Shown in pieces: positions 7,581 to 60,868 of a DNA stretch of 64,000 nucleotides. The notes below the pieces were generated by a model. That model had not been told where the DNA came from. It ran no database searches and was given only the letters and a program-made list of their open reading frames with translations. Both the position numbers and the translations under genes were made by a program. The DNA is from an uncultured Gammaproteobacteria bacterium (lineage in GTDB: Bacteria; Patescibacteriota; Patescibacteriia; Magasanikbacterales; JBBTXJ01), in assembly GCA_964610305.1 (NCBI GenBank), contig CAZSVL010000003.1, forward strand, positions 13,122 to 77,121, read 5' to 3'. Each line of letters opens with the position of its first letter. The stretch's first letter is position 1.

Positions 7581-8285
7581 TTAGTTTTTATGTGTTGTAG
7601 GCGCAAGGGAAAGTGCCTGCGCTGTTTTTGATCTTACTATGGTTCTGCTGGTAATTGTTTGTTTGCCAGATTTTTTTGTGGCCTGAACCGTTACTGTGTT
7701 TATTCCTTTTTGAAGTGGAATCTCTGTTTCAAACCTGCCTTCTTCATTGCTTTGGATGGGTTCGCCATTTATATGTATAGAAACTTGTTTCTCACTTTTG
7801 CCGCTTATGGTTACTGACGCTGCGCTTGTCATCAGGCCGTCAGGTGGATTATAAAGCGCTAGACTTGGCGGCTGAACAAATTGCCAGAGCTGCCAGAGAA
7901 GCCCTCCTGAGAAAACCACCACCAAAAGCGTCAACACACCGGCTCGGGCTAGTCGTGAAAAATCAAACAGAGATTTTTTGTTTACACACGGTGAGGGTAA
8001 AAGCTGCTTTTCTTTTTTGTTCCATTTATTTTCAAAGCCAAAACCGGCGAGCGCCATTGCGGGGTCCATGCCTACTGCCTTTGCATAGCACTTAATATAG
8101 TGCTTGACGTAAATAGAAGCAGCGGGGATATCATTTATACGACACTCCTCCAGAGCGGTGAGATTTTTAACATTTATGCGTGTTTGCTCTGAGAGCTGCT
8201 CTAAGCTCAGCCCCTTTTGCAGGCGTGCCGACTTGAGCGCAACGCAATAACGTTTAGTCTCCTTTATTTTTTTTGCTTTAAACAT
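7581..8285 (-). CDS. RodZ-like membrane protein (N-terminal XRE-type HTH, one TM, C-terminal domain)
   Basis: HTH segment LSLEQLSEQTRINVKNLTALEE, then ASIYVKHYIKCYAKAVGMDP, a TM helix and an extracellular tail. Confidence 0.6.
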   Translation of the reverse strand: MFKAKKIKETKRYCVALKSARLQKGLSLEQLSEQTRINVKNLTALEECRINDIPAASIYVKHYIKCYAKAVGMDPAMALAGFGFENKWNKKEKQLLPSPCVNKKSLFDFSRLARAGVLTLLVVVFSGGLLWQLWQFVQPPSLALYNPPDGLMTSAASVTISGKSEKQVSIHINGEPIQSNEEGRFETEIPLQKGINTVTVQATKKSGKQTITSRTIVRSKTAQALSLAPTTHKN

Positions 8286-8287
8286 GT

Positions 8288-10648
8288 TTACTCCTCTAAA
8301 TAGTCTCCTTGTTGGCCATCAAGATAATCATCTTCTGATTGCTCATCATCAACATCCTCTTGCTGCTCCTCTTGCTCAAATGACTGCTCTTCTTGTTCAA
8401 TAATGCGTGGCGGCCGGCTTGGCACGGGAATATCCTCGTATCCATCGCTGTCATCTACCATATCAAGATCATCGGGGCTCATCAAGACTTCCCTTGCTTT
8501 TGATCCCACAGCTGGTCCTACCACATCTGCCTCTTCTAGCTCATCTAAAATACGCGCAGCTCTGGCGTAGCCAACACGCAAGCGGCGTTGCAAGAAAGAG
8601 GCGCTGGCTTTTCCGCTTTCAATAACCATTTGCCGCGCTTGCTCAAAAAGAGTGTCTCGCTCTGCGCTGCCCCCACCAAATACCGTGGCACTTGGCCCGC
8701 CTGTTTTTTCAAAATCCTCATAAGAAGGTGCATCTTGGTCCTTCAAAAAGTCTGCAATGCGGTGAATTTCTTCTTCTGATATAAATGCGCCTTGCAACCT
8801 TTTTGGTTTGGAAAGATCAGCAGTAAGTAAAAGCATATCTCCGCGACCAAGAAGTTTTTCAGCTCCAGCATTATCCAAAATAACGCGCGAGTCCATGAGG
8901 GATCCCACAGAGAATGCAACGCGCGCCGGGATGTTTGCTTTCATCAGACCAGTAATTATATCTACGCTTGGTCTTTGCGTTGCAATAACCAAGTGTATTC
9001 CCACGGCACGTGACATTTGCGCAAGCCGCACAATGCCCGCTTCTACTTCTGCGCCAGAGGTGACCATAAGATCTGCCAGCTCATCTATAACAAATACAAT
9101 GTACGGCAATTTTTCTCTACTTTTTTTGTTGTAAGAGCCAATGTCGCGGCTCTTATTTTTAGAGAGCAGATCAAAGCGCCTTTCCATTTCCGTGATCGCC
9201 CATTTAATAGCGGCAATGGTTTTGTTTTTATCCGTGATGACAGGCGTTAGCAAATGTGGAATGCCATTGTAGGCAGGAAGCTCAACACGTTTTGGGTCTA
9301 CCATGATAAAGCGTAGTGTGGCCGGCGTGTGTTGGTACAAAAGACTAATAATAAGGCTGTGGATTCCTACGGTCTTTCCAGAACCGGTTGCGCCGGCAAT
9401 AAGCAGGTGTGGCATTTTTGAGATGTCTGCAATTTTGGGTGTTCCAGAAACATCTTTTCCAACCGCAAAAAGCAAACCTTCTTTTCTGCCCTTAAATTCT
9501 TTGTGTTCCAAAAGCTCACGCAGCGTAACCATAGCAATACGCTGATTGGGTACTTCTACTCCCACCAAAGATTTACCCGGAATAGGCGCTTCTATTCTTA
9601 TGGGGTGAGCGGCAAGAGCAAGCGCCAGATCATTATGCAGAGCGGTGATTCTGTTGAGTTTAACCCCTTTGGAAGGTTTAAGGGTGTACTGAGTAACGGT
9701 TGGCCCAACCTGAATATCTCCAAGGCTTACATCAATGCCAAAATTATCCAGCGTGTCTTTTATAATAGCGCTGTTTGCTTTTATGTCTCCCGCAGTAGGT
9801 TTTGATTTAGAGGTGTATAGCAAATTGGGAGAAGGGAGGATAAAAGGTTTTTTTGGTTTTGCTGGAGCTGCTGGTTTGCTAGAGGTTTTTTCTTCTTCCT
9901 CCTCAGAGTCCGCTTGCTCTGGCGTTTCCTCTTCTAGTTCATCTTCAAAATCTGCGTCTTCATCATCAATAGTAGAGAGCGCTCTTCTCTCAAAGCCTAT
10001 ATCGTCATCTACATCATCATCCGTGCTAGCATAAGGAGTGCTTTTGCCACGCACTAATCTAGACAAGCTTACAATACTGTTTCCAATCCAGCCCAAGTGT
10101 GCCAAAACCAAGCGGTGAGTTTCTACCAGATTGGCCAGTGACATATTAAACAAAAACAGCAGCGCAACCACCAGCAGAGCAATCAGAATAATCATGCCCG
10201 CCCAATACCCTACAAATTGTTTTAATGGCCATGCCAGAGCAAGCCCTAAAATTCCACCACCACTACCAAGGAGCGCTTCATCTATTAAATCCCGCGCTGG
10301 AAAGCCCAGGTGGAACATAGCGTTTACGGCAAGAAAGAAAAGCGCCGCGCCAATAAAGTGCATGAGGGTGTAATTGTACTCGCCCTCTTTCTCAATAAGA
10401 TAGCCAATGATAATAAGGACCACGGGAATAACAAATCTAGTTTTTCCAAATCCTACAGAGAGAAATGCCTCCCAAAAAGTACCGGCCAGGCCTGCAAGCT
10501 GAAAGAAGGATAGAAGCGAGAGCCCAGCCAGTGCAAACAAAAAAATGGCGAGTACACCCCGCTTTATCTCTGGATTAAAATCAATGCGCCCAAAACTAAA
10601 GCCGTGGCGCGATCTTCGCCTCCTGCGGCGTTTTCGCCTTTTTGCCAT
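8288..10648 (-). CDS. ftsK: DNA translocase FtsK/SpoIIIE
   Basis: N-terminal TM helices, acidic linker, motor domain with Walker A IAGATGSGKT, C-terminal gamma winged helix (FLQRRLRVGYARAARILDELE), acidic tail. Confidence 0.9.
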   Translation of the reverse strand: MAKRRKRRRRRRSRHGFSFGRIDFNPEIKRGVLAIFLFALAGLSLLSFFQLAGLAGTFWEAFLSVGFGKTRFVIPVVLIIIGYLIEKEGEYNYTLMHFIGAALFFLAVNAMFHLGFPARDLIDEALLGSGGGILGLALAWPLKQFVGYWAGMIILIALLVVALLFLFNMSLANLVETHRLVLAHLGWIGNSIVSLSRLVRGKSTPYASTDDDVDDDIGFERRALSTIDDEDADFEDELEEETPEQADSEEEEEKTSSKPAAPAKPKKPFILPSPNLLYTSKSKPTAGDIKANSAIIKDTLDNFGIDVSLGDIQVGPTVTQYTLKPSKGVKLNRITALHNDLALALAAHPIRIEAPIPGKSLVGVEVPNQRIAMVTLRELLEHKEFKGRKEGLLFAVGKDVSGTPKIADISKMPHLLIAGATGSGKTVGIHSLIISLLYQHTPATLRFIMVDPKRVELPAYNGIPHLLTPVITDKNKTIAAIKWAITEMERRFDLLSKNKSRDIGSYNKKSREKLPYIVFVIDELADLMVTSGAEVEAGIVRLAQMSRAVGIHLVIATQRPSVDIITGLMKANIPARVAFSVGSLMDSRVILDNAGAEKLLGRGDMLLLTADLSKPKRLQGAFISEEEIHRIADFLKDQDAPSYEDFEKTGGPSATVFGGGSAERDTLFEQARQMVIESGKASASFLQRRLRVGYARAARILDELEEADVVGPAVGSKAREVLMSPDDLDMVDDSDGYEDIPVPSRPPRIIEQEEQSFEQEEQQEDVDDEQSEDDYLDGQQGDYLEE

Positions 10649-10675
10649 AGAGAAACATTATATCACGCAGCGTAA

Positions 10676-10732
10676 AACAAAAAAACCGACGTAGCGGCCC
10701 AATCTTTAAAGACCGTACATGTCTTACGTCGG
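10676..10732 (-). terminator. Rho-independent terminator-like hairpin (8-bp stem, ~31-nt loop, T-run on the minus strand)
   Basis: CCGACGTA...TACGTCGG followed on the minus strand by TTTTTTT. A second copy with compensatory stem changes lies at 10817-10871. Confidence 0.5.
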
Positions 10733-10816
10733 AAATAGCTGGCACCACCCGTCTCTTTAGGAGTCGTTGACTAATAACCAGCACGTGAATCGTAGCGCAG
10801 CTGCAGTGGTTTGTCA

Positions 10817-10871
10817 ATAAAAAAACCGACGCAAACCCCTACTCTTGAATAGAAGTTCTTTCTTGCGTCGG
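10817..10871 (-). terminator. Second terminator-like hairpin, covarying with the one at 10676-10732
   Basis: CCGACGCAA...TTGCGTCGG plus a T-run on the minus strand. Confidence 0.5.
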
Positions 10872-11156
10872 AAAAAGGTTTGGGAGGCTTTGCTTCTTAC
10901 TAGCAAGCGGCTCTTGCCCAAAAACCTCTCAGAAGACCTGCGAAAGCTGTAGGTGCAATTATCCGCAACGTACGCTAGATTTCATGTCCATCACCGAGGT
11001 GATGAAATGAGGAAAGTATCTTACGTACACTTTGGACACCCACCCCTTCGCAGGTTTTCTGGGAGGTTTGTGAGGACAGTATAATGCCATAAATACTTTT
11101 GTGTCAAGATGTGGACAAATAAAAAAGGGCGCGGTGTTTCCACGTTGCCCTGTTGG

Positions 11157-11909
11157 TTACTGAACCTCAATCGCCTTAGGCGGGTTGTTGTCCAGAGATC
11201 TTGGGTCCAGTGCATGCAAGGCCTTGGAGTAGGCCTTGCTATGGCGGGGGCCCGCTGCCTTGTACACCTGCCAGGTGTCTGTGGCAATGGTATAGGTTAC
11301 GTAGCACGTCTCAAAGCCAGCCCAGGTCACGCCTTGTGCCTCTACGAACACACTGTGGTTCATAGACTGACCGGTGCACCAGTCCAGGCCGGTGGGCTCC
11401 TTCTGAATCCACTGACCGTTGCCCGTGAACACCCAGAGCGAGTGCAGACGACGTGTGCCGTCCTGGTCAGTAAAGACGGTTGCTATTCGGCCAGAGACAA
11501 ATGCGTAGTCGCTCGTCCAGTTGTGACTGAATGAGGTATGGCGAACCAGGCGATCCTCCGTCGCATCGTACTTGTAGATTCGGCTTCCCGAGCTAGTGAA
11601 GAAGTAAAGGCCGTTTTCCTGCTCAGAGGTCTGGGTCACTACGCTACTGCCCATAACCAGCTTTCTGCCGGTGGGCGTAACGAGAACCTGATACCGACTT
11701 CCTGGCATCTGGTGAATAGTGCGCCCCTCTACATCACTGACGATGATGTCCTCCGTCTGGTTCCACCAGTTGAGCGTCTTAAAGACACCAACGGTTTCAC
11801 TCTTGTGGAGCGTGTCAGCGCGCGCATCCTCATAGGTACTGTGGCTCGGCGGCTCATTGCAGCCAGCCAGCAGAAGTGCGATTGTCAAAACATTCAGAGC
11901 GGTTCTCAT
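11157..11909 (-). CDS. Hypothetical lipoprotein (signal peptide with LAGC lipobox)
   Basis: MRTALNVLTIALLLAGC lipobox. GC-richer than the genome background. Followed by the hairpin AGGGCAACGTGGAAACACCGCGCCCT plus a T-run. Confidence 0.65.
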   Translation of the reverse strand: MRTALNVLTIALLLAGCNEPPSHSTYEDARADTLHKSETVGVFKTLNWWNQTEDIIVSDVEGRTIHQMPGSRYQVLVTPTGRKLVMGSSVVTQTSEQENGLYFFTSSGSRIYKYDATEDRLVRHTSFSHNWTSDYAFVSGRIATVFTDQDGTRRLHSLWVFTGNGQWIQKEPTGLDWCTGQSMNHSVFVEAQGVTWAGFETCYVTYTIATDTWQVYKAAGPRHSKAYSKALHALDPRSLDNNPPKAIEVQ

Positions 11910-12228
11910 GTGCTTCCCCTTTCTGTGATTGTCTACTGTCTGTCCTACGGGCCGACCATGTGGTGGACATGATCGGCCGCTAGGACAGACTAGCGGGAAA
12001 AATTAGTCAGTAACAGTGGTCCTGATGCCCGAAGGCACCAGGGGACACTCGTTACTCACAAGTGTCTTAACCGGAAGGGCACGGCGCAACTGCAGCACGT
12101 TCTGGAAACCAGACCGCCACAGCATGGGTACGTCGCGCACAACCGAAATCATTGGCATTGGTAAACCCTCCCGCAAGCAGGAGGAGTGACGCGTCCAAAG
12201 CATGGATTGGGCGCGATACTCCTCTTCC

Positions 12229-12316
12229 GTCATTCTGAACTTGATTCAGAATCTCCCAAAGAAAACGGTTTAAGAAAAACGTCTTCTGTGAGATCCCAGA
12301 TCTTCTCTGGGATGAC
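12229..12316. repeat. GTCAT-family twin-hairpin repeat element
   Basis: GTCATTCTGAACTTGATTCAGAATCTC...GAGATCCCAGATCTTCTCTGGGATGAC. Confidence 0.8.
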
Positions 12317-12872: not shown

Positions 12873-13142
12873 ACTCCCTCCCAAGAGTTCGTTTTCAAAC
12901 AAAAACAGTCACAGATCGTCCTCGGTAGCATGGCTGGCGCTTACCTTTTTTGTATATAGGTTTATATGCGACAGGTGCCCCCTCGGACGATCTCTGACTG
13001 CTTTAAAATTGTTAACGTTCTTTGCAACGACGATATCATTATAATACCGCAACTGCACACTATAGCACACTTTTGTCATTTTGTCAAGAGGAGATGCCTA
13101 TAATTTGGCTTATTTTAGCGCGATTTTGCATTTTGCTTCAGG

Positions 13143-13309
13143 GGTTAGGGGTTAGCGTGTAGGGTGTAGTGGTATCACCTTGTCATTCTGAACTTGATTC
13201 AGAATCTAGGAAGAAATTGAGCACGTCTTACTGTTCTAGTGGATCCTGAATCAAGTTCAGGATGATGCTATAGAGATTCTACACCCTACACCCTACGCCC
13301 TAACCACTA
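13143..13309. repeat. GTCAT-family twin-hairpin element (core 13192-13268) nested in ~30-bp outer inverted repeats
   Basis: Outer ggttaggggttagcgtgtagggtgtagtgg / ctacaccctacaccctacgccctaaccactag. Core GTCATTCTGAACTTGATTCAGAATC...GGATCCTGAATCAAGTTCAGGATGATGC. Confidence 0.8.
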
Positions 13310-13525
13310 GAGACTGTGGATACACTATTTGACAAACGTCAAACAACCGTATAGAATAACGCTGATTTTTAGCGTCTTTGACGCACTTAAACTTTTGCCC
13401 TTATTTTAGCAAAAAAATCAATGAAGGGCCGCCTCCGCGTTGATACAAATTAAGTAAATTTAGCCAAAAACGCCCTATGGGCGCTACTTTTTGTTCTGCG
13501 GAAAAAAATCGCTTTCATTTTCTGT

Positions 13526-13563
13526 GAGATCCCGGATATTTGCTTCGCAAATTTCGGGATGAC
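13526..13563. repeat. Solo half-copy of the GTCAT-family element (GAGATCCCGGAT...TTCGGGATGAC)
   Basis: Matches the right-arm hairpin of the family. Confidence 0.6.
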
Positions 13564-13604
13564 AGGAAGTATACCTTATTATATACACCTTATAATTCTC
13601 CCCT

Positions 13605-23002: not shown

Positions 23003-24874
23003 ATGTGCGGAGTAGTGGGATACATCGGGCAGCGCGAAGCCCATGAGGTGCTCCTTACCAATATGGGGTACTTGCAGCAGCGCGGTTATGATAGCGCTGG
23101 CGTGGCGGTGATGGATTCTGACAAGGCAGTACATGTTCAGAAGGCTATTAAGGAAGAGTCAGGACCTTCTCCGGTTTCTCAGCTCTGGAATCAGCATGGC
23201 AAAGCCAGTCTGCTTGGCGGCATCGGCATTGGTCATACTCGTTGGGGTACGCATGGAGAGGTGAGTATCTACAATGCGCATCCTCATATGAATCCCGATT
23301 CAAACATTTGGATGGTTCATAACGGGATAATTGACAACGCAGCAGAGTTAAAAGCAGAGTTTTTTCCGGGCGCGTCTTTTCTATCAGAGACAGACTCTGA
23401 GGTTATCGTTCATTTGGTTTCTATGTATTGCGATGAGGGTCTAAGTCTTGCAGACGCATTAAAGAAGGCTTTGTCTCATGTGAGCGGAACATATGCGCTG
23501 ATTCTCATGAGCACCAAAGAACCAAATAAGCTGGTGTGCGCCCGGCTAGGAAGTCCGCTTATGGTGGGAGTGACAGAGAGTGAAATGTTTGTTGCTTCTG
23601 ATGAAGAAGGATTGGCCAGCTATACCAATAGAGTTGTTGACCTTAAAGAGATGATGCCTGATGGTGGCGTTACTGTTGTAAATCTAAATGGCGTACACGG
23701 AGGCGATTCTCCAGAGAGGACTATTCCGTGGGATATTTCCATGGCTCAAAAAGGCGAATACCCGCATTTCATGCTTAAAGAAATTATGGATCAGCCCCGG
23801 GTTGCTGTTTTGGCAACGTCTGAGGGTAGGCGGCTGGATTTCAAAAATGTAACCACGCGGCTTGATGGGCCTAAGGCCTTCGCCAGAGAGCTTGCAAGGA
23901 TTGAGGATGTATTCTTGGTGGGTTGCGGAACAGCTTACCACGCTGCGCTCTTAGGAGAGAGATTTCTAAGAGAAGACGCATCTTTGAGAAGAGCACGGGC
24001 CGTAATTGCAAGCGAGACATCACTTGAGCAGATGGTTGTTGATCCTCACAAGACGCTTGTCATTGCCGTGTCTCAGTCTGGAACCACGTACGATACGCGG
24101 TGTGTTGTAGAAGATGCTCAGCGTATGGGAGCCCTGACATGCGGGATTATCAACAGAGTTGAGTCTGAGATTGCGCGGCTTTGTGATTTTGGCGTGTATT
24201 GTCACGCGGGGCCAGAGATTAGCGTGGCATCAACTAAAGCATTTTTGTCTCAAGGTTTGGTACTCTATCAATTGGCTATCTTCCTTGAGGGACTGAGCGA
24301 TTTTGGCGGTAACTATTCAGACGGATACCTTGATGAGTTGCATACCTTTTCTAAAAAGGTAGAAAACGCATTGCTTGTCCGGGATCAAGTTGCGCGTATA
24401 GCAAACTTTCTTTTCCGGGGCGCGCTGAGCAGGCCACGCTTTGTGCAATTCATTGGTTGTGGGGCTTCTGCTGTTGCTGCTATGGAAGGAGCGCTCAAGT
24501 TTAAAGAGGTAACGTACATTCCCAGCAGTGGAATGCCTGGTGGTGAGTTAAAGCACGGCGCTCTGGCGGTATTGGGTCCGGATACTCCGGCGGTAATCAT
24601 CATGCCAGAGTGTGATGAACAAACGCCTATAGCAAGTACCCTTGCCCAGCTCCAAAAGACGGGTTGTCCGCGCATTGTGGTGACGACAGAAGGACAAAAG
24701 ACCTTTAATTTAGAAGGGGTTGATGAGGTGATACATGTTCCAAAGACAGATCATCAGCTTCAGGCGATGCTGTCTGTCATCCCGTTGCAACTTCTTGCCT
24801 ATGAGACGGCGGTTGCGTTGGAGCTAGACGTGGATATGCCACGCCACTTGGCCAAGACGGTAACGGTGGCATAG
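23003..24874 (+). CDS. glmS: Glutamine--fructose-6-phosphate aminotransferase
   Basis: N-terminal MCGVVGYIG (Cys nucleophile; the ORF-track start is 9 codons too early), two SIS domains, C-terminal ...VTVA. Confidence 0.93.
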   Translation: MCGVVGYIGQREAHEVLLTNMGYLQQRGYDSAGVAVMDSDKAVHVQKAIKEESGPSPVSQLWNQHGKASLLGGIGIGHTRWGTHGEVSIYNAHPHMNPDSNIWMVHNGIIDNAAELKAEFFPGASFLSETDSEVIVHLVSMYCDEGLSLADALKKALSHVSGTYALILMSTKEPNKLVCARLGSPLMVGVTESEMFVASDEEGLASYTNRVVDLKEMMPDGGVTVVNLNGVHGGDSPERTIPWDISMAQKGEYPHFMLKEIMDQPRVAVLATSEGRRLDFKNVTTRLDGPKAFARELARIEDVFLVGCGTAYHAALLGERFLREDASLRRARAVIASETSLEQMVVDPHKTLVIAVSQSGTTYDTRCVVEDAQRMGALTCGIINRVESEIARLCDFGVYCHAGPEISVASTKAFLSQGLVLYQLAIFLEGLSDFGGNYSDGYLDELHTFSKKVENALLVRDQVARIANFLFRGALSRPRFVQFIGCGASAVAAMEGALKFKEVTYIPSSGMPGGELKHGALAVLGPDTPAVIIMPECDEQTPIASTLAQLQKTGCPRIVVTTEGQKTFNLEGVDEVIHVPKTDHQLQAMLSVIPLQLLAYETAVALELDVDMPRHLAKTVTVA

Positions 24875-24910
24875 TTTCTTGCCCGGAGAAATCCGGGTTT
24901 TTGATATTTT

Positions 24911-24982
24911 GTCATTGCGAGCGAAGCGAAGCAATCCCGTTGCTAACTTGTTGGGATTGCTTCGCCTCCGGCTCGCAATGAC
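24911..24982. repeat. GTCAT-family long-hairpin repeat (subtype B)
   Basis: GTCATTGCGAGCGAAGCGAAGCAATCCC...GGGATTGCTTCGCCTCCGGCTCGCAATGAC. Confidence 0.8.
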
Positions 24983-25034
24983 AAAAAAGATCGCGCCTGT
25001 TGAAAAAGAGTAGCCCTTTTGATACTCTAAGCGC

Positions 25035-25733
25035 ATGTCAGGTCACTCAAAATGGTCAAAAATTAAGCGACAAAAAGGCGCGGCTGATGCGGCGCGCGGG
25101 AATTTGTTTACCAAACTTTCTAAAGCCATAAGCATCGCAGCGCGTAGCGGCGGTGATCCAGAGATGAATTTCTCTCTGCGCCTTGCTATAGATAAGGCGC
25201 GCGCTTCTAACATGCCTAAAGATAATATAGATAAAGCAATAAGACGCGGCACGGGAGAGGATAAATCCGCCGCGGTTATTGAAGAGCTTATGTATGAGGG
25301 TTTTGGTCCGGGTGGTGTGGGGGTTTTGGTAGAAGTGGCAACAGATAACAGAAACAGATCTGGCGCCGATATAAAGCATTTACTCTCAAAATATGGAGGA
25401 GGCTTGAGTGGGCCGGGAAGCGTAAAATGGCAGTTTGAACAGAAGGGTGTGATTTATTTAAAAGATATGCCAGATGATGATCTGCAGTTAGAGCTAATGG
25501 ACGCGGGAGCTGATGATATAGTCTCTGAGGATGGTGCTATAATTTATACGGCGATTGGGGACTTTAAAAAAGTAATGACAACTTTACAAAACGCGGATTT
25601 GTCACCTGAAGAGTCTGGTTTGGAGTGGGTGGCTAAAGATACTGTGGCGGCTGATGCGGGAAAACTTGAAAAATTTATCGAGAGATTAGAAGAGCACGAT
25701 GATGTTCAAAATGTTTATACGAACGCGCAGTGA
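25035..25733 (+). CDS. yebC: YebC/PmpR-family DNA-binding regulator
   Basis: MSGHSKWSKIKRQKG... the canonical YebC N-terminus. Confidence 0.9.
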   Translation: MSGHSKWSKIKRQKGAADAARGNLFTKLSKAISIAARSGGDPEMNFSLRLAIDKARASNMPKDNIDKAIRRGTGEDKSAAVIEELMYEGFGPGGVGVLVEVATDNRNRSGADIKHLLSKYGGGLSGPGSVKWQFEQKGVIYLKDMPDDDLQLELMDAGADDIVSEDGAIIYTAIGDFKKVMTTLQNADLSPEESGLEWVAKDTVAADAGKLEKFIERLEEHDDVQNVYTNAQ

Positions 25734-27540: not shown

Positions 27541-28857
27541 TTATGTGTTAACCTCCGTTGATAGATTAGCATTTTTTTTGTAGGAAATAAAGATGAGTGA
27601 AAGCAGAAGCCAAAAAATAACGGCAAGATCATTTTTAAAATAAGGGACATCCACCAGACCGTGAATTAAAATAGTCAACACTGCCGCAAGAAGCGGATAG
27701 TTTGGCGTCCGCATAATAGCCCAATAAAAAAGCAGGATAAAGGCAAGGACGCCAAGTAGTCCCAGCTCAACCCAAAAGTTAAGCAGTATATTGTGCGGGT
27801 ACTCAAACACCTCAATCCATTTGTCTATCCTATACCTATATATAGACTCCTTATAACTAGAGAGCCCAGTTCCTAAGAGTGGATGGTCGGAGATAAGTTC
27901 ACTAGCTTCCGCCCACATATCCAGCCGCAATCCGCCGCTGTAGTCTGCAAAAATAAGCTCTTGCTTTATGTTGGATAATCCAGGCGTAAGCATGATAGCG
28001 GCAGTAATTCCCAAGCCCGTTGCTCCAACAAAGAATCTCGTTTTTTTATGTATGACCCCAATTATAAAACCGGCTCCCGCAAGTGCTACAAGTGCGCCCG
28101 TTGTTTTTGCCCAGATGATGGCAAGAAAGCTTGCTGAAGTAACAAGTAACAAGTAACAAGTAACAAGTACGTCCTTCCACCTTTTTCTTGTGTGTGAGAA
28201 GTTTTTTATGGTTCTTGTTGCCTCGTCAATAAAAAGGGGTATGAGCGGTGCCATAAAAAGCCCAATGGCATTAGGAAATCCCCAAACGCTGGTAACGCGT
28301 CTTGTTTGCTCTGCTGCCCAATACGGATTAGGAATCCACACCCCCGTGAATTTTTGGTAGATGGCAATGATTGCAGTAGCTAAGACCGAAAGTGATAATG
28401 AAAAGATAATTGCGGGGCGATCAGTTTTTTTAAATGTAGTTATAAAAATGAAGAATAATGCTACCGGTTCTATAATATACGCTTTCCAAAGTCCGGCAGC
28501 AGCTCTTGTATCTGGCGCAATGATGAGCGATAGGGTTCCGGCTATAAGTAGCAGGGCGATCCCAAGCGCTAGCACCCATTCTTGTGTCATTCTGAGCGAA
28601 GCGAAGAATCCCGTCAAGCGACTAACTTGCTTTTTAAACGGGATTCTTCGCCTTTGGCTCAGAATGACTGCTTTTATCAGCCACATGACTGCAACAATCC
28701 AAATCATTACTTCAAGCAATGTGCTCGGCAAAGGCCCAATACTAAACCTAATAAGATACACAGGAAGCAACGCAATTAAAACAAGAAGCGCCCACCTAAG
28801 GCGGACGAGCGCGAGTGCTGCAAAGCCGATTGTAAAAGCTATAACAAGGCCGGTCAT
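27541..28857 (-). CDS. O-antigen ligase / Wzy-like polytopic membrane protein
   Basis: 438 aa, >10 TM helices, Wzy_C-like central loop. Contains an in-frame repeat element and a heptanucleotide tandem repeat. Confidence 0.6.
   Translation of the reverse strand: MTGLVIAFTIGFAALALVRLRWALLVLIALLPVYLIRFSIGPLPSTLLEVMIWIVAVMWLIKAVILSQRRRIPFKKQVSRLTGFFASLRMTQEWVLALGIALLLIAGTLSLIIAPDTRAAAGLWKAYIIEPVALFFIFITTFKKTDRPAIIFSLSLSVLATAIIAIYQKFTGVWIPNPYWAAEQTRRVTSVWGFPNAIGLFMAPLIPLFIDEATRTIKNFSHTRKRWKDVLVTCYLLLVTSASFLAIIWAKTTGALVALAGAGFIIGVIHKKTRFFVGATGLGITAAIMLTPGLSNIKQELIFADYSGGLRLDMWAEASELISDHPLLGTGLSSYKESIYRYRIDKWIEVFEYPHNILLNFWVELGLLGVLAFILLFYWAIMRTPNYPLLAAVLTILIHGLVDVPYFKNDLAVIFWLLLSLIFISYKKNANLSTEVNT
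28139..28171. repeat. Heptanucleotide tandem repeat (AGTAACA)x4 plus a partial copy, inside the Wzy-like CDS
   Basis: agtaacaagtaacaagtaacaagtaacaagtac. Confidence 0.9.
28586..28668. repeat. GTCAT-family long-hairpin repeat (subtype B) lying in-frame inside the CDS 27541-28857
   Basis: GTCATTCTGAGCGAAGCGAAGAATCCCGT...ACGGGATTCTTCGCCTTTGGCTCAGAATGAC. Translated as ...KAVILSQRRRIPFKKQVSRLTGFFASLRMTQ... Confidence 0.8.
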
Positions 28858-28858
28858 A

Positions 28859-30304
28859 TCAACGAGTAGAGATCAAAAGCCTAAGATCTCTATACGATAT
28901 ACCTTTTACGGCTATCATGGCAAGAGTGTAGACCGCTCCTCCGATAAAAACTAAAAGTACAACATGCAGATCGCGGATAAGCCACAGAGATCCTGCCATT
29001 AAGCCACTTGCCGCCACTGATTTAAAAAGTGGCGTGAGCGTTATTCTAGCGCGCGTTACTTTTTTAACATAAAGCCACAAAAGCGCGCCAGCAAGCAGCT
29101 CAGAGAAAACCGTCATCCACGCAGCGCCCATATAGCCATAGCGTGGAATGAAGATAAGATAGCCAACAAGCGTGATAATGGCAGTAAGAAGATAGATCCA
29201 AATAGTTTTTCTTTGGTGGTTGATGGCAACAATGGTGTGACCAAAGAGCGCTCCTAAAAATCCTCCCATAAGAGCGATAAGTAAGACTTGGACAATCGGG
29301 CCGGATGCAATAAACTCTTCTCCTGCGATGAGTTTCATAATAGGAGATGCTAAAAGTGCCCCGCCAACAAGAACAGGAATAGCTACCACAGACAGGGCAG
29401 AGAATGATCTGCTCACCAGAGATGAGAAATTTGCTTTATCGGTACTGGTCCAGCTCTTAGCAAGTAGCGGGACCATCAAGCCCATAAAGATAATGGGTAT
29501 GGCGGTGGTAACATCCATTATTCTGTATGCAGCTCCATACAGCCCCACTTCTGTTTGAGGTCTCACCAAAGATAAAATGAAAACGTCTGCTCTTAAATAG
29601 ATAAGATTAAAAGCAATGGAGATGGCAATCGGCCAGCTTTTTTTGAAAATAATTGACCAGATGTTTTTTTCAAAAGAAAATCCAAGCGGGACAATGCGAT
29701 GCGCTCTTGTCGCAAGCACTATGGTCTGGGCGATGTTTCCAATCACCACCGCAGCCATTACCGGCATAAAGCCAAAGTCTTTGTAGACCACCAAGAAAAC
29801 ACCGGCAAACAGTGCGGCTCTCTGCGCCACTTCAGCTAGGCCAATCCAGTGAGCTTTAAGATGTTTTTGAAAAATTCCCGTGAGGATTTGATTTTCTGCA
29901 ATGAGGAAAAATGCTACAGAGGTAAGGACAACTGCCCATTTAATTTCTGTGGTGTACGGAAAAAGCCAAATGAGTGCTGCGGCTAATCCGTACGCTACGG
30001 CAGCAGTGAGGGTTCTAAATCCAAGCAGGTTACGGACTATGGTTTTTTCAGAATAATCCTTAAGCTCGCCGAGCATTTGCCCGGTAACAATAACCAAACC
30101 AAAATCTATTAAAATGCCAACAATCTGCAAAAATGCCACCGCCGTAACATACCAACCAAATTGCTCTTGCCCTAAATAGCGGGTCATCATGGCAATGGTA
30201 GCAATACCCAAAAACGTCCCGACGATTTTTCCGGAGAAATGAGTAAAGGTATTGCGCACTACGCTAGCGGTTGCCATGCACAGAGCATAGCACAGAGCGC
30301 GCAA
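28859..30304 (-). CDS. Polysaccharide/O-antigen flippase (Wzx, MOP superfamily)
   Basis: 481 aa, ~12-14 TM helices, typical Wzx topology. Adjacent to the Wzy-like gene. Confidence 0.7.
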   Translation of the reverse strand: MRALCYALCMATASVVRNTFTHFSGKIVGTFLGIATIAMMTRYLGQEQFGWYVTAVAFLQIVGILIDFGLVIVTGQMLGELKDYSEKTIVRNLLGFRTLTAAVAYGLAAALIWLFPYTTEIKWAVVLTSVAFFLIAENQILTGIFQKHLKAHWIGLAEVAQRAALFAGVFLVVYKDFGFMPVMAAVVIGNIAQTIVLATRAHRIVPLGFSFEKNIWSIIFKKSWPIAISIAFNLIYLRADVFILSLVRPQTEVGLYGAAYRIMDVTTAIPIIFMGLMVPLLAKSWTSTDKANFSSLVSRSFSALSVVAIPVLVGGALLASPIMKLIAGEEFIASGPIVQVLLIALMGGFLGALFGHTIVAINHQRKTIWIYLLTAIITLVGYLIFIPRYGYMGAAWMTVFSELLAGALLWLYVKKVTRARITLTPLFKSVAASGLMAGSLWLIRDLHVVLLVFIGGAVYTLAMIAVKGISYRDLRLLISTR

Positions 30305-34222: not shown

Positions 34223-34269
34223 CAAAAAAAGGGCTTAATTGAGCCCTTTTTTAATAGGCGTGAGAGCAC

Positions 34270-34298
34270 TTGACAAATTCAGCCGTATATGTTATAGT
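34270..34298 (+). promoter_or_regulatory. Consensus sigma70-type promoter (TTGACA, 17-bp spacer, TATAGT) with no downstream ORF
   Basis: TTGACA at 34270-34275, TATAGT at 34293-34298. Confidence 0.55.
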
Positions 34299-34304
34299 TA
34301 CAGT

Positions 34305-34688
34305 CCTGTTCTTTGCAGTGTGTGCGTAGAGGTTGGTGTTCGGTAAAGAGCAATAGGTGAGCGGTTCGGCTATGGGATGGTCGTGAGCATGCATGTGCTC
34401 TTGGTGGACCACATAAAGGTCCGAGAAATCTAACCTAGGCAGGACCAGTGACCATATCTTTTTTAGCAAAAGGCACGGGACCCCCCTAGGCGAAAAGCCG
34501 CGCAGAATCAGCAGAGACTGCGCAGTTTAGAGCCCATAGTTTACATAGAGAACACGCTTATTGCAACCACGTTAGCTAGCGCCCTAGGCGTAGTGGAGAA
34601 TTCAGCTGGAGTCAGCTAAAGCAATCGCACCACAAGTCAGGTTTCCCGGTAACGCTGTCACCCGTGGCAGCGTTACCGGGATTTTTTT
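34305..34688 (+). ncRNA. Candidate structured ncRNA (~380 nt) of unknown identity
   Basis: Bounded by the consensus promoter and a strong terminator (CCCGGTAACGCTG...CAGCGTTACCGGG followed by TTTTTTT). No ORF of 60 aa or more. Several internal hairpins. Confidence 0.45.
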
Positions 34689-34714
34689 GTACTTAAAAAT
34701 CCGCTATGCGGATT

Positions 34715-35239
34715 TTATTTATCAGGATCGTACGGATCGTGACCGACCCATTTTAGTAGCTCTGTTCTCACCTTATGAGGCTGGGGTATATCCTTAAAGC
34801 TAAACTTGCTCTCTGCTCCTGCCGATTGGATCTCAACGTCTCCATAGTTAAAAAAAGTGGAAAATACGCCCTGCAAATTAGAGCTGGCGTCTTGCACGCG
34901 GTCTAAATCTAGCTCTGAAACAGTGCGTTTAAACAGTCCCTGTTGTTGTATATCTATAACGCGCTCGTTGGTGACTACCCATACATCAAGGTAATAATCT
35001 ACAAATTGAGTGAGAAACAAAGCAAGAACAAATAGGGTGTAGAGACTACCCATCATGACAATGGCAGGCCCCCAGAAAAGATCCTGCATTCCTCCCGGGA
35101 AGAGTATGGGGAAAATAAACGGTATGGTTAGTAGCAGTGCGATCAAGAGAATTTTTGGGACAAAAGTAAGAGGATGTCTTCTTACCACGAGCACAATCTT
35201 TTCCGCAGTTTTTTTATGAATTGTTTCTGCAAGATGCAT
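34715..35239 (-). CDS. Membrane-anchored bacterial PH-domain (YdbT/bPH_2-like) protein
   Basis: Start taken at MHLAETIHKK. Two N-terminal TM helices then a PH-like domain (RVIDIQQQGLFKRTVSELDLDRVQD). Confidence 0.6.
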   Translation of the reverse strand: MHLAETIHKKTAEKIVLVVRRHPLTFVPKILLIALLLTIPFIFPILFPGGMQDLFWGPAIVMMGSLYTLFVLALFLTQFVDYYLDVWVVTNERVIDIQQQGLFKRTVSELDLDRVQDASSNLQGVFSTFFNYGDVEIQSAGAESKFSFKDIPQPHKVRTELLKWVGHDPYDPDK

Positions 35240-35241
35240 AG

Positions 35242-35493
35242 CTAAAATGCGCTTTGGCCTACCGTGTTGCCAAAAATATAGAGTATTTGACTGGTGTCGG
35301 TGCCAGCTAAATAAATACCTGTAAAGGCAATGACAATCACCATTAAAATAATCAGGCATGCGGAGACCGCAAAGCTCAACAGATCAATGGCTCCGGTTGC
35401 TGCAATATGATACACGTTGATACCGGCCATGATGAGTATAAAAAGAACACCAAAAGCGTAGAGACCAACAAAAAGTGAAAGCGGTATTCCCAT
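35242..35493 (-). CDS. Small hypothetical membrane protein (83 aa, 3 TM helices)
   Basis: Hydrophobic ORF. Its stop codon directly abuts the start of the downstream PH-domain gene. Confidence 0.45.
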   Translation of the reverse strand: MGIPLSLFVGLYAFGVLFILIMAGINVYHIAATGAIDLLSFAVSACLIILMVIVIAFTGIYLAGTDTSQILYIFGNTVGQSAF

Positions 35494-53820: not shown

Positions 53821-55464
53821 ATGACATTACAAAAAATACATCCAAAAGCGGTTGCGTTTTTTTTGATCGCCTTTTTAGTCTTAGCGCTGACTCCTAAACC
53901 TGCAGGAGCATCTTCGCCATACGCTCCAGAAGAGCTGGTGAAAGGATCAAGTGATACGGTCTACTACATAGGCCAAGACAACATGAGGTACGTTTTCCCT
54001 AATCAAAAAGTGTACATGAGTTGGTATGAGAATTTTGATGATGTGCGCACTATTGCCGATGCTGATATAAACGCTACGTCTATTGCTGGCGTGGTGAGAT
54101 ACAGACCAGGTGTGCGCATGATAAAAGTGCCGGATGATCCAAAAGTATATACGGTTTCCTCTCAAGGGTTGGTGCGCCATGTTTTAGATGAAGATGTTGC
54201 GACAGATCTTTATGGAACAGCGTGGAATACTTTTATAGATGATATGCAGGCGTCACTTTTTGTAAGTAATTACAATTTTGGCGCGGTCATTTCAGGCGCA
54301 AGTCAGTATGATCCAGCAGCTCAAACAGCCGCAGCAACCACTATTAGCGCAGATTTTGGTTTGATTGATACCACTACAGAATCTTCAGAGCCGTCTGGCT
54401 CTTCCGATGATATAACTTCTGGCACAGATGATCAGACAAGTGGTGATGGTGATGCTCAAGATACTTCAACTTCTGACCCAGATCCAGATCCGGAACCAGA
54501 GCCAATTGCGGTGCCAACACTCTATAAAGATATGGAAGCATTAGTATATGCTCCCTCTGATTCTCAAAAAGTATACGGCGCTTCTTCTGATCCAAATGTT
54601 GGTATTATAGTTAGCAGCAATGGCGGCACTACCTGGACAACCAGCAGAGATGGAGCTTCTGCCAGCGCTTTGGCAGTGAATCACGCAGATCCTAATGTGG
54701 CGCTTGCTGTAGAAGGTGGTGTAATTTTAAGAACCGCCGATGGCGGATCCCAGTGGGAGGCGGCCACCGTGCCAACAGATTTTTCTGACGCGCTCGGACT
54801 GGATTTTTCAAAGACAGACTCTGATGTTGCATACGCTGTCTCTGCAACCATACTAATTAAGAGCGTTGACGGTGGTGTAACGTGGGAGAGAGTGAATGTG
54901 GTAAACGCCAACACCTATAATTATACTGGCGCAATGGAAGTGTCTCATACTAACAGTAGTTTGCTTTTGGTGGGATCTACCAAAGGTGTGCAGCGTAGTG
55001 TTAACGGTGGTATGGATTGGACACAGCACAAGCCCGGTCAGGGAGAAATGCTGCCAGTACGCAGCTTGGCGCTTAATCAAGCCAATACGTCTGTGTTTTA
55101 TATGGTGACAGACGAGGGGATTTGGTACACGGCAGACACGGGAGATAGTTGGAATGTTGCCAAGGCGCCAGATGTAGCACACGCAGAAGTGCACAACATA
55201 GCGCTTGCGGAAAGTGACACCAATATATTGTACATAACCACAGAAAGCGGTGTCTTTGTTAGCACTGATAGAGCGGTAACATGGGAGGGGAAAACAGACG
55301 GTATGGTTTTGGCAGATTCTCACGCAATCGCTGTTGCTCCAGATGACGCTCTAGCAGTATTGGCAGGAACAGACGATCAGGCAGAGGATAATGGTAATGA
55401 GGGCATTTACTCGAGCACAAACGGAGGAGAAGAGTGGGCCATTGTTGGAGCATTGATATTCTAA
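53821..55464 (+). CDS. Secreted BNR/Asp-box repeat (beta-propeller) protein
   Basis: Signal peptide. At least 7 S-x-D-x-G-x-T-W repeats (SSNGGTTWTTS, TADGGSQWEAA, SVDGGVTWERV, SVNGGMDWTQH ...). Confidence 0.75.
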   Translation: MTLQKIHPKAVAFFLIAFLVLALTPKPAGASSPYAPEELVKGSSDTVYYIGQDNMRYVFPNQKVYMSWYENFDDVRTIADADINATSIAGVVRYRPGVRMIKVPDDPKVYTVSSQGLVRHVLDEDVATDLYGTAWNTFIDDMQASLFVSNYNFGAVISGASQYDPAAQTAAATTISADFGLIDTTTESSEPSGSSDDITSGTDDQTSGDGDAQDTSTSDPDPDPEPEPIAVPTLYKDMEALVYAPSDSQKVYGASSDPNVGIIVSSNGGTTWTTSRDGASASALAVNHADPNVALAVEGGVILRTADGGSQWEAATVPTDFSDALGLDFSKTDSDVAYAVSATILIKSVDGGVTWERVNVVNANTYNYTGAMEVSHTNSSLLLVGSTKGVQRSVNGGMDWTQHKPGQGEMLPVRSLALNQANTSVFYMVTDEGIWYTADTGDSWNVAKAPDVAHAEVHNIALAESDTNILYITTESGVFVSTDRAVTWEGKTDGMVLADSHAIAVAPDDALAVLAGTDDQAEDNGNEGIYSSTNGGEEWAIVGALIF

Positions 55465-55503
55465 ATAATTAAAAAAACGCGGCAGTCCGCGTTTTTTTGT
55501 TTG

Positions 55504-55586
55504 TCATCGCGAGGAGCATAGCGACGTGGCGATCCCGTGGCTAAGCAACGGGATTGCCACGGGGGCATGCGCCCCCTCGCAATGAC
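55504..55586. repeat. GTCAT-family long-hairpin repeat (subtype B variant)
   Basis: GTCATCGCGAGGAGCATAGCGACGTGGCGATCCCGTGG...CCACGGGGGCATGCGCCCCCTCGCAATGAC. Preceded by the bidirectional terminator ACGCGGcagtCCGCGT. Confidence 0.7.
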
Positions 55587-55590
55587 CAAC

Positions 55591-56598
55591 CTAGATAACA
55601 GGATTAAGAGGTTTTCTTCCACCAAGCACGGCGATGATATTTTTTGCAGCAATTTTTGCCATCTCATCTCTGGTTTCTTTTGCTGCACTGGCAATGTGTG
55701 GGGTTAAAATAACATTTTCCATGTCACGCAAAGCCATGTGATCTTTTACATTGCAATCTATAAGCGGCTCACATTCAAATACATCAAGTGCGGCGCCAGC
55801 GATTTGTTTTTTCTTAAGTGCTCGCAAGAGCGCAATTTCTTTTACAATCGGGCCGCGGGCTGTATTTACCAGAAAAGCGGTTTCTTTCATGGCAGCCAGT
55901 TCTTTGGTGCCAATAAGATATTTTGTAGATGGTAGTAGGGGAACATGGACAGAGACAACATCAGATCTTTTGCAAAGATTTAGCAAGTTCACTCTTTTTG
56001 CGCTTACATCTTTTTCTAATTGTTTGTTTTTAACCACGTCAGCGTACAAAATTTTCATGCCAAGTCCGTGGTGTGCAAACCGTGCGGTGGCACTTCCAAT
56101 TCTTCCGCCCCCAACAAGACCTAATGTCTTTCCTGAAAGTTCTGTGGTAAGCATCATAAGAGGAGCCCAACTTTTATACTTTCCTGCGCGTGTGTATCGG
56201 TCTGCTTCTACTATTCTTTTTGAGATAGCCATGATAAGAGCAATGGTATGCTCTGCAACGGCGCGGCTAAGGACACCTGGCGTATTGGTTATGGTAACGC
56301 CGTATTTTTTTGCAGCTTTTATATCTATATTGTTGTATCCTACTGCATTTTGAGCAATAACTTTTAGTTGAGATCCGGCAGCTTTAAAGACGCCTTCATC
56401 TATTTTTTCCGTAAGCATGCATAAAATAGCATCTGCTCCTTTTATTTCCTTAAGAAGATTTTTGTAAGGTATGGCGGGGCCGCTTCCGTACACATCGCGT
56501 TTATCGTGCCAGACTTTTACTTCAAAGTTTTTCTTAGTCTTGAGTAGTTTCATCCCAGCATCTGGAATGGTTCTTGTGATAAATATTTTCTTTTTCAT
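55591..56598 (-). CDS. D-isomer-specific 2-hydroxyacid dehydrogenase (glycerate/phosphoglycerate dehydrogenase family)
   Basis: Start taken at MKKKIFITRT. NAD-binding GLVGGGRIGSATARF. Catalytic R/E/H triad region. Confidence 0.85.
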   Translation of the reverse strand: MKKKIFITRTIPDAGMKLLKTKKNFEVKVWHDKRDVYGSGPAIPYKNLLKEIKGADAILCMLTEKIDEGVFKAAGSQLKVIAQNAVGYNNIDIKAAKKYGVTITNTPGVLSRAVAEHTIALIMAISKRIVEADRYTRAGKYKSWAPLMMLTTELSGKTLGLVGGGRIGSATARFAHHGLGMKILYADVVKNKQLEKDVSAKRVNLLNLCKRSDVVSVHVPLLPSTKYLIGTKELAAMKETAFLVNTARGPIVKEIALLRALKKKQIAGAALDVFECEPLIDCNVKDHMALRDMENVILTPHIASAAKETRDEMAKIAAKNIIAVLGGRKPLNPVI

Positions 56599-58192: not shown

Positions 58193-58222
58193 GAAAATGC
58201 CCCAGGTCTTACGCTGGGGCGG

Positions 58223-58585
58223 GGTGGAGGCGCCGGGAGTCGAACCCGGGTCCAGAAAGGTTGTTCATCTGCGTCTACGTGTGTATTCCTTGCATGGTTG
58301 CCTACGCTGCTTTGCCCAAGGACAGGCGGCTGCGCAGCCGGTTCATTGCTGTGTTTAAGACATGCTCCGCAATTCCATTAGAGCAGTACCGAGCCTACAT
58401 AAGTTTCCCTAATCCCGCCTATAGGCGAGCGAGCTTTGGGGTCGCATGCTGCGTACTAGGCAGCGAGCGCGACGGACTCAGCGTCAGTATTGGCGTCTGA
58501 GTTGCGCCCGGGGGATCAAAGGGTCCCAGACATCCCTTACACGCAGCAGGTAGCGTCCGCTCCCTGTCGAAACCAGTTCGCCCCC
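58223..58585 (-). ncRNA. ssrA: tmRNA (SsrA), tag peptide ANTDAESVALAA
   Basis: 5' GGGGGCGAACTGGTTTCGACAGGGA. tRNA-like 3' end GGGTTCGACTCCCGGCGCCTCCACC. In-frame GCC AAT ACT GAC GCT GAG TCC GTC GCG CTC GCT GCC TAG. Confidence 0.85.
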
Positions 58586-60514: not shown

Positions 60515-60670
60515 TGGAAGGGGTAGGATTCGATGAGCAAATGAGTGAGTGTAATAAACATGCTCGCATGCTTATTACCGAGCGAATGCTGCTCGGCCCG
60601 AAGGGCACCTACGAAGACGGTGTCGTCGGATTTACAATCCGGTGCCTTTAACCAACTCGGCCACCCTTCC
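60515..60670 (-). tRNA. tRNA-Tyr (anticodon GTA), type II, carrying a 73-nt structured insertion in the T-loop between nt 54 and 55 (60534-60606)
   Basis: GGAAGGG...CCGGA-TTGTAAA-TCCGA...GTAGG-T[GCCCTTCGGGCCGAGCAGCATTCGCTCGGTAATAAGCATGCGAGCATGTTTATTACACTCACTCATTTGCTCA]TCGAAT-CCTAC-CCCTTCC-A. Confidence 0.6.
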
Positions 60671-60677
60671 ATTAAAG

Positions 60678-60752
60678 TATCCCCAAGGGGATTTGAACCC
60701 CTGCCTCCGGATTGAGAGTCCGGTGTCCTGAGCCTGACTAGACGATGGGGAC
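60678..60752 (-). tRNA. tRNA-Glu (anticodon CTC)
   Basis: GTCCCCATCGTCTAG...CCGGA-CTCTCAA-TCCGG...GGGG-TTCAAAT-CCCC. Confidence 0.75.
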
Positions 60753-60756
60753 GGGG

Positions 60757-60830
60757 CGGTGATGACGAGACTTGAACTCGCAACCTTCGGCCTGACAAGC
60801 CGCTACACTAGCCAATTGTGTTACATCACC
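60757..60830 (-). tRNA. tRNA-Asp (anticodon GTC)
   Basis: Acceptor GGTGATG/CATCACC-G, anticodon loop TTGTCAG. Confidence 0.7.
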
Positions 60831-60868
60831 TGAAGGCTTGCCTGGCGTAGCCGAAGGCGAAGCCTGGG

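Follow-up and report, generated by a model that had tools for sequence, protein, structure and literature searches.

Positions 34270-34688 of the stretch of DNA analysed here (64 kb of contig CAZSVL010000003.1, hereafter the window) very probably contain a real, separately transcribed gene for a folded RNA of about 340 bases. An earlier note on this DNA had described the locus as a promoter-to-terminator unit without an open reading frame (ORF) and as a candidate housekeeping or novel non-coding RNA (ncRNA). We favor, with moderate confidence, the interpretation that it represents a new clade-restricted family of structured ncRNAs near Magasanikbacteria, approximately 340 nt in size (335-390 nt in the relatives), for which a trans-acting scaffold or binding RNA is the likeliest role. 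At the family level the RNA is new, having no match in Rfam 15 and no description that could be found in the literature; in kind, it is one more of the orphan structured bacterial ncRNAs.

The host belongs to the candidate phyla radiation (CPR)/Patescibacteria near Magasanikbacteria; the best relatives of the flanking proteins are from CPR/Patescibacteria, the nearest named organism being Candidatus Magasanikbacteria. The ultra-small CPR/Patescibacteria account for a large part of bacterial diversity, and their tiny genomes hold little non-coding DNA. To our knowledge, almost nothing is known about their ncRNAs beyond ribosomal RNA, transfer RNA (tRNA), transfer-messenger RNA (tmRNA) and diverged RNase P RNA. 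An RNA of 340-390 nt with a consensus promoter and an elaborate fold is costly in such streamlined genomes, and it is therefore likely to do something. If the proposed family is real, it is among the very few lineage-specific large ncRNAs described for the CPR radiation.

The transcription unit and its relatives

The promoter named in the earlier note is indeed present on the + strand at 34270-34298 and is of the sigma-70 type. It consists of TTGACA, a spacer of 17 nt and TATAGT with a TG-extended -10 box, scores 11/12 and is the only site with a score above 10/12 in the 30-40 kb part of the window. Judged from the promoter geometry, transcription would start approximately 7 nt after the -10 box, which gives an RNA body of about 337 nt (34305-34641, + strand) and a modeled primary transcript of about 384 nt including the terminator. 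The intrinsic terminator (34644-34688, + strand; hairpin 34644-34681) is the strongest in the same 30-40 kb region. Its strength and its run of seven T residues are as the earlier note had stated; the stem, given there as 13 bp, has 17 bp (10 of them G-C) and a 4-nt loop.

Relatives were collected by protein searches with SpoIID and RuvB followed by contig look-ups. The complete promoter-body-terminator unit was found at the syntenic site in four further contigs from two lineages, L167 on the one hand and L162, L163 and L164 on the other. The gene order SpoIID -> gap <- bPH_2 <- 83/84 aa <- RuvB is kept throughout, next to the class II ribonucleotide reductase (RNR) in L162-164 and L167. In the window and in all four contigs the gap measures 450-490 nt and holds the unit in the same orientation. 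The TTGACA box, the 17-nt spacing and the TGnTAnnnT sequence are retained in all five copies, and the terminators at the corresponding position in the relatives are strong as well (12 bp in L167, 14 bp in L162-164). The body is 333-338 nt long in the window/L167 type and about 385 nt in L162-164 (333-390 nt overall). Conservation in relatives, which the earlier note had proposed to look for, is thus seen for the unit; covariation statistics, also proposed there, call for more sequences than these.

In the window the order is SpoIID -> RNA unit <- bPH_2 <- 83 aa <- RuvB, so the unit stands alone between convergent genes. The flanking proteins are a SpoIID/LytB-domain protein, a bPH_2 membrane protein, an 83-aa protein, RuvB and the class II RNR. 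The SpoIID-like gene stops at 34222, just before a hairpin with an 11-bp stem flanked by A and T runs (34225-34252; listed on the - strand), a predicted bidirectional terminator acting on both strands; a hairpin is likewise placed after the SpoIID gene in L167. On the other side, a second hairpin (AATCCGC-tat-GCGGATT, 34698-34714) has T runs on both strands and an equivalent in L167. By its sequence, it is a terminator for both strands, closing the convergent ruvB-83aa-bPH_2 operon (- strand) and reinforcing the RNA terminator (+ strand). It adjoins the gene for the bPH_2 membrane protein (34715-35359, stop codon 34715-34717), which is on the - strand, opposite to the unit as the earlier note had it. 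These separate terminators are predicted to insulate the RNA unit from both the upstream SpoIID-like gene and the ruvB operon.

The same layout bears on the suggestion that the locus encodes one or more very small proteins, or serves as a regulatory region, cis-acting or antisense, for the SpoIID or bPH_2 transcripts. Short ORFs do exist on both strands, and L162-164 have no terminator between the SpoIID stop codon and the RNA promoter, so that read-through from SpoIID is possible there. Yet terminators flank the unit on either side in the window and in L167, and since the downstream gene is convergent the unit cannot be its leader. On the + strand no ORF of at least 25 aa lies within the transcript; the sole + strand ORF nearby (34239-34346, 35 aa) begins upstream of the promoter. 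The absence of ORFs of 60 aa or more, as claimed in the earlier note, therefore stands for the + strand, whereas the - strand contains a 72-aa ORF with a TTG start (34251-34469), which is not conserved. The lineages share no ORF by position or by sequence, indels of 1-2 nt among L162-164 break the reading frames, and tblastx between the lineages detected similarity only at the promoter/5' end and the terminator, in multiple frames and on both strands. The small protein was accordingly rejected, and we consider this whole group of explanations extremely unlikely.

Divergence, loss and mobile elements

Sequence divergence of the RNA is close to neutral. Between the window and L167, RuvB is 90% and SpoIID 78.5% identical at the amino acid level, and third codon positions of ruvB are 49% identical, that is, saturated. 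The RNA bodies are 53% identical as compared to 47.6 ± 1.4% for shuffled sequences, with clear conservation confined to the promoter, the first ~10 nt and the terminator. Between lineages, nhmmer fails to link the RNAs, k-mer sharing is near chance and MAFFT alignments are unreliable. The GC content of the RNAs is 51-59%, the genome average being 47%.

Based on RuvB identity, the contigs fall into three clades and two singletons. The W clade includes, in addition to the window, L170 (94.7% identical to the window) and L167-169 (89.7%). The M clade consists of L162-164, with 92-95% identity among themselves and ~73% to the window. The third clade comprises L165, L166, L171 and L172; RuvB of L165 and L171/L172 is ~80-82% identical to that of the M clade, and L166, whose RuvB is cut by the contig end, was assigned by SpoIID/bPH_2 similarity and gene order. 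In all four contigs of the third clade the unit is missing from the syntenic site, where the flanking genes abut or slightly overlap (gap of 38 nt at most). The class II RNR of L165 (6536-10393) is 1516 aa long and has a LAGLIDADG_3 domain, which the 1170-aa version of the window lacks; the domain is probably an intein or a homing-endonuclease insertion.

In L168, an insertion sequence (IS) of the IS200/IS605 type (L168:5560-6162; compare L167:5835-5900) lies in the RNA body, 11 nt from its 3' end. The Y1 transposase gene of this element has CCACGGGCNNACGCCCGTGG hairpins on both sides. RuvB of L168 is identical to that of L167, in which the RNA gene is intact; samples ERR2281804/5 are thus polymorphic at the locus. 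In view of its clean loss from the L165 clade and the interrupted allele in L168, the RNA gene is probably dispensable or accessory, as far as can be read from the sequences. No neighboring gene tracks the presence of the RNA: bPH_2, the 83-aa protein, RuvB and SpoIID are all found where it is absent. With no family signal, near-neutral divergence, absence from the syntenic site of a sister clade and an IS200 insertion in one strain, the housekeeping half of the earlier proposal finds no support. The half that suggested a novel ncRNA agrees with an independent, conserved, non-coding and highly structured unit without an Rfam match.

Beyond these contigs, the RNA was found in none of the 160 loci among the RuvB matches listed (genome and metagenome contigs, all with at most 65% identity). 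Phage records and IMG/VR contigs gave no match to the RNA; 55 viral matches to a 15-mer were set aside as chance. Contigs L001 and L169 break off within the 3' part of the RNA gene or shortly before it, and L170, L174, L175 and L176 end inside bPH_2 and supply no RNA copy. Clustering of assembly breaks at the locus is consistent with strain-level variation.

The patchy distribution of the RNA and the transposase gene within it in L168 also raise the question of whether the RNA is a part or leftover of a mobile or diversity-generating element, such as the template of a diversity-generating retroelement (DGR), a retron-like ncRNA or an IS200/IS605 guide RNA. A DGR-type RVT_1 reverse transcriptase (RT) and bAvd are encoded directly upstream of the SpoIID-like gene in L164 (304-1895) and L171 (7241-8418), and an IS110-family transposase gene lies 8 kb from the RNA in the window. 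Against such an origin, no part of the RNA is repeated in the 64-kb window, a template/variable-region pair therefore being absent, and internal direct repeats are lacking too, with just chance repeats of 9-16 nt in two or three copies. RT, TnpB or IscB domains were not found in the scanned ORFs (the three next to the RNA and two further on each side). DGR and RNA are uncoupled, L171 having the DGR without the RNA and the window the RNA without an RT in the scanned ORFs; the IS in L168 has inserted into the RNA gene and is not its partner; and the searches of phage records and IMG/VR contigs were negative. An origin from a mobile element is thus very unlikely in our opinion. A CRISPR or TIGR-type guide array was rejected as well, as regularly spaced direct repeats were not found.

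Two observations on these elements can be added. The SpoIID-like protein or a neighbor may be the target of the DGR-like pair in L164 and L171. The IS110/IS116/IS902-family transposase domain of the window is found in a 586-aa ORF (42468-44228, - strand); IS110-family elements carry structured guide ('bridge') RNAs of their own.

Fold, shared core and probable selection on pairing

As the earlier note had suggested by pointing to multiple hairpins, the interior of the unit is structured. It is more stable than all 100 dinucleotide shuffles (z = -4.8), and the same holds for L167 (z = -6.2) and the L162 type (z = -7.6), each with 0/100 shuffles as stable. The earlier note was mistaken about the ends of the RNA, for which it had seen no pairing: in the minimum free energy (MFE) fold, 34305-34326 (CCUG..CUU..GUGUGUGCG) pairs with 34626-34641 (CGCACCACAAGUCAGG), both on the + strand. 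This long closing helix, P1, is predicted in all five copies with lineage-specific sequence, its equivalents being 2-39/294-329 in L167 and a helix of ~22 bp in L162-164.

Inside P1, a core spanning more than 200 nt is recognized in all three lineages. In the 5' to 3' direction it consists of the helix strands H5a, H5b and the adjoining H6, the motif GG/AWGGUY, approximately 140-175 nt of hairpins, the motif AG/CC, strand H6', an A-rich loop of 6-8 nt, and strands H5b' and H5a'. The 19 columns of H5a/H5b/H6 in the five sequences include seven with compensatory double changes, four with one-sided changes and eight invariant ones, and 91/95 cells are paired; the underlying cross-lineage alignment was made by hand and anchored on a few common motifs. 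A string, GGUUCGGCUAUGGG, occurs in both the window and L162, and the structural register puts it on the H5b/H6 strands. An alternative pairing (GGUY/RRCC/GGYY), present in the window and L167 and not in L162-164, was dropped. Taken together, the features proposed for the family (the unit, P1, H5a/H5b/H6 with the A-rich loop, and GG/AWGGUY and AG/CC flanking H6) are found in the window, L167 and L162-164.

Since sequence aligners failed, a custom Sankoff-type aligner using ViennaRNA pair probabilities was applied. The window and L167 align with a score of 13074 and 85 shared pairs, compared with 7900 ± 855 and 49 ± 12 shared pairs for dinucleotide shuffles and scores of 8100-10150 for unrelated structured RNAs (the window tmRNA, E. 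coli M1 RNA and the antisense strand). Most substitutions in predicted stems among L162-164 leave pairing intact (1 compensatory, ~12 G-U-type and ~6 broken). A descriptor built of the two motifs and the three helices recovered all five loci and one other site in 4.28 Mb; shuffled DNA gave 4 parameter-redundant hits in 12.8 Mb.

This evidence also bears on the possibility that the locus is a transcribed functionless spacer, either insulation between convergent operons or a decaying gene or mobile-element remnant, with incidental structure. Near-neutral identity between close relatives, the traceless loss in the sister clade, the tolerated IS insertion, comparable z-scores elsewhere in the window and the dissimilarity of the two RNA types over their whole length would all suit a spacer. 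Nevertheless, the exact TTGACA-17-TGnTAnnnT promoter, a similar body length and the terminator are kept while the interior is saturated, all three lineages are far more stable than shuffles, and the compensatory changes in 7/19 core columns together with 85 versus 49 shared pairs argue for selection on pairing. A functionless spacer is therefore distinctly unlikely, although we do not give it the lowest probability among the explanations considered.

The proposed ncRNA family can then be pictured as follows. An insulated RNA, bracketed by a consensus promoter with an extended -10 box and by a strong intrinsic terminator, folds into the long 5'/3' closing helix. Inside P1, a three-part helix of ~20 bp with an A-rich asymmetric internal loop encloses a multi-hairpin junction carrying a few invariant nucleotides (GG/AWGGUY, AG/CC and GYGGAGAR). 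The RNA probably acts in trans as a scaffold or binder of a protein or small ligand. Its function is probably exerted via three-dimensional architecture, because the helices are kept by compensatory changes as the primary sequence drifts near-neutrally; extended antisense pairing is not expected, because single-stranded sequence outside the few short motifs is not conserved.

Several points weigh against this interpretation. We infer from sequence that the unit is transcribed into a stable RNA, and we likewise infer its role as a scaffold or binder of a protein or small ligand, accessory rather than essential. The - strand folds equally well (z = -4.96), so that only the promoter and terminator tell which strand is transcribed. 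When the window was scanned coarsely in 340-nt segments with 10 mononucleotide shuffles each, the overlapping segment 34341-34680 ranked 11th of 189, which means that stability alone is not decisive. Alignments of the window/L167 type with L162 score 9637 and 10278, not above the baseline of 8100-10150 set by unrelated RNAs; whole-molecule similarity of the two types is therefore not demonstrable, and helices outside the core have no confident matching between them. The descriptor was tuned with all three lineages in view, which makes it supportive and partly circular. Finally, the evidence comes from five sequences of three lineages, three of them ~90% identical, too few for R-scape-type covariation statistics, and hence, beyond P1 and H5a/H5b/H6, the structure proposed here should be taken as provisional.

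A bolder version of the proposal is unlikely. The RNA could constitute a new class of tertiary-structured CPR-lineage RNA that works as a ribozyme, senses a ligand or makes up the core of an unknown ribonucleoprotein (RNP), and in which the fixed junction nucleotides and the paired UA[AG]CAA-like A-rich loops form the active or binding site and the helices evolve near-neutrally.

The elements of the window RNA, all on the + strand, are arranged as follows. According to the five-sequence alignment, the 5' strands H5a (GAGCG), H5b (GUUC) and H6 (GGCUAUGGG) occupy 34359-34376. The junction motif GG/AUGGUC (34375-34382) directly 3' of H6 is present in all five copies in the form GG/AWGGUY. Folds then predict hairpin a (GAGCAU-gcau-GUGCUC, 34385-34400), with counterparts at the same position in L167 (GGAC-gua-GUCC) and L162-164 (GGGGCGC-caggu-GCGCCCU), and a long hairpin (CCUAGG...CCUAGG, 34434-34490). 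The counterparts of the latter are UUGCAGG.../...CCUGCAA in L167 and GUGGUGUGC.../...GCACACCGC in L162-164; its A-rich apical loop contains UAGCAAAA in the window and AACAAAC in both L167 and L162-164. Hairpin c (GCGCAG...CUGCGC, 34500-34523) is also predicted from the folds and corresponds to GUGCUGUGGU/ACUACAGCAC in L167, with no clear counterpart in L162-164. The 3' half of the core, placed by motif and helix alignment, contains the AG/CC motif with the H6 3' strand (34531-34541; the strand, CCCAUAGUU, at 34533-34541), the A-rich internal loop UACAUAGA (34542-34549; UAGCAA in L167 and UAACAAA in L162-164) and the H5b and H5a 3' strands (GAAC-A-CGCUU, 34550-34559). In the 3' domain, two predicted hairpins, GCGCC-cua-GGCGU (34579-34591) and AGCUG-gagu-CAGCU (34604-34617), lie on either side of the motif GUGGAGAA (34593-34600; family GYGGAGAR), which reads GCGGAGAG in L167 and GURGAGGG in L162-164.

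Two single-stranded sites in each RNA, one in the internal loop of the long helix and one at the apex of the long hairpin, have an A-rich motif similar to UA[AG]CAA(A). The motif is UAACAAA at both places in L162-164, UAGCAA and UAAACAAAC in L167, and UACAUAGA (34542-34549) and UAGCAAAA (~34462-34469) in the window. Such a repeated motif may be a repeated binding site.

Elsewhere in the window, the coarse scan gave z-scores equal to or below that of the RNA locus for the 340-nt segments 10881-11220, 11901-12240, 24821-25160, 28561-28900 and 55421-55760, none of which has an Rfam match. The first of them overlaps an ORF-poor gap (10649-11108), and another ORF-poor gap (12903-13604) is located nearby, outside the listed segments.

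Comparison with known RNA families

At gathering thresholds, Rfam 15 identified a tmRNA, a group I intron and ~30 tRNAs in the window and nothing at the locus. When 651 nt of the locus were compared with Rfam, as the earlier note had advised, only chance matches to hairpins, those of the terminators, were obtained at E<=10. The earlier note was right to exclude tmRNA: the locus has no tmRNA signal at E<=10, and a canonical tmRNA (137 bits) is found at 58222-58585. SRP (signal recognition particle) RNA, 6S RNA and a second tmRNA were rejected, since no covariance model matched the locus, or the copies of two relatives, at E<=10; in the whole 64-kb window at E<=5 there was no match to RNase P, SRP or 6S RNA.

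Beside the tmRNA gene, a dense array of ~30 tRNA genes extends over 60515-64000 on the - strand. One of the tRNAs called is 156 nt long (60515-60670), possibly because of an intron. The group I intron (45617-45837, - strand, 83.8 bits) is located between a 233-aa ORF without a Pfam match (44812-45513) and a tRNA-Ala gene (45918-45991), and ARAGORN detected no split tRNA around it.

Among the known RNAs, RNase P RNA requires the closest attention. It was not detected in 10/35 circular CPR genomes at default thresholds and was recovered only when the RF00010 cut-off was lowered to 5 bits (Lui et al., 2021; PMC8172020). Many CPR copies are devoid of P13/P14/P16/P17 and a few of P12, so RNase P RNAs of these bacteria can score under the Rfam cut-offs and be short of several helices (Lui et al., 2021; PMC8172020). 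If the RNA were an extremely diverged rnpB, the size of 335-390 nt, the promoter and terminator of its own and the 5'/3' closing helix observed here would all fit, and no RNase P match exists elsewhere in the 64-kb window. The earlier note had dismissed RNase P RNA for lack of P1, an argument that fails since the closing helix does exist; found in all five copies, this helix is not specific to RNase P. In L162-164, GGAAGGUUC superficially resembles CR-I GGAAAGUCC.

However, RF00010 and RF00011 gave no match at E<=10 to the loci of the window, L162 and L167 (~500-650 nt each), in a search whose reach does not extend to scores of ~5-12 bits. Local similarity to E. coli M1 RNA was no better than for shuffles, and a likeness of L162 to E. 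coli CR-I/P8 noticed by eye was at the chance level and was discarded. The CR-I (GAGGAAAGUCC...) and CR-V (ACAGAA..CGGCUUA) blocks were not found. The CR-I-like motif has no positionally conserved P4 partner, its complements being as numerous as expected by chance; for the P4 pseudoknot, the best GGAWGGUY complements lie at non-equivalent sites in the three lineages, at chance frequency. The H6'-H5b' segment, which takes the topological place of J2/4 and P4', has only 6-8 nt. The near-saturated body despite 90% RuvB identity is unlike the CR-I to CR-V cores, and the RNA is cleanly absent from the syntenic site in L165/L166/L171/L172 and interrupted by an IS200-type element in L168. We thus regard the rnpB assignment as scarcely probable. 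For the annotation of CPR genomes this is a caution against taking every stand-alone structured RNA the size of RNase P RNA for rnpB.

As a folded ncRNA, the new RNA nonetheless resembles RNase P RNA (RF00010, including the CPR forms; PMC8172020) in its size range (330-400 nt), its own promoter and terminator, its 5'/3' closing helix and multi-helix core, and in its CPR hosts, in which standard models often miss RNase P RNA. It differs from RNase P RNA in having no model match at E<=10, no CR-I/CR-V blocks and no conserved P4 pseudoknot, as well as in its near-neutral divergence, its absence from the sister-clade site and its interruption in one strain. With 6S RNA (RF00013) and the large SRP RNA (RF01854/RF01857) it shares an abundant-type promoter and a closing helix. 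The long irregular helix with the A-rich asymmetric internal loop recalls SRP helix 5, and the rapid divergence of sequence with retention of structure is also characteristic of 6S RNA. Unlike 6S RNA, the new RNA is about twice as long and branched, not a single rod with a central bubble; unlike SRP RNA, it has extra 3' hairpins, no domain IV motifs and no Rfam match.

The orphan large structured bacterial ncRNAs OLE, ROOL, GOLLD and raiA have functions that are unknown or only recently emerging. The new RNA matches none of their Rfam models and has no recognizable dedicated partner protein gene. It is shorter than OLE, ROOL and GOLLD and, unlike ROOL and GOLLD, is not found beside tRNA arrays or prophage genes. 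Like these four RNAs, however, it is a long, ornate, multi-helix molecule of narrow range, independent of the downstream gene and apparently non-essential, with fixed junction nucleotides and covarying helices.

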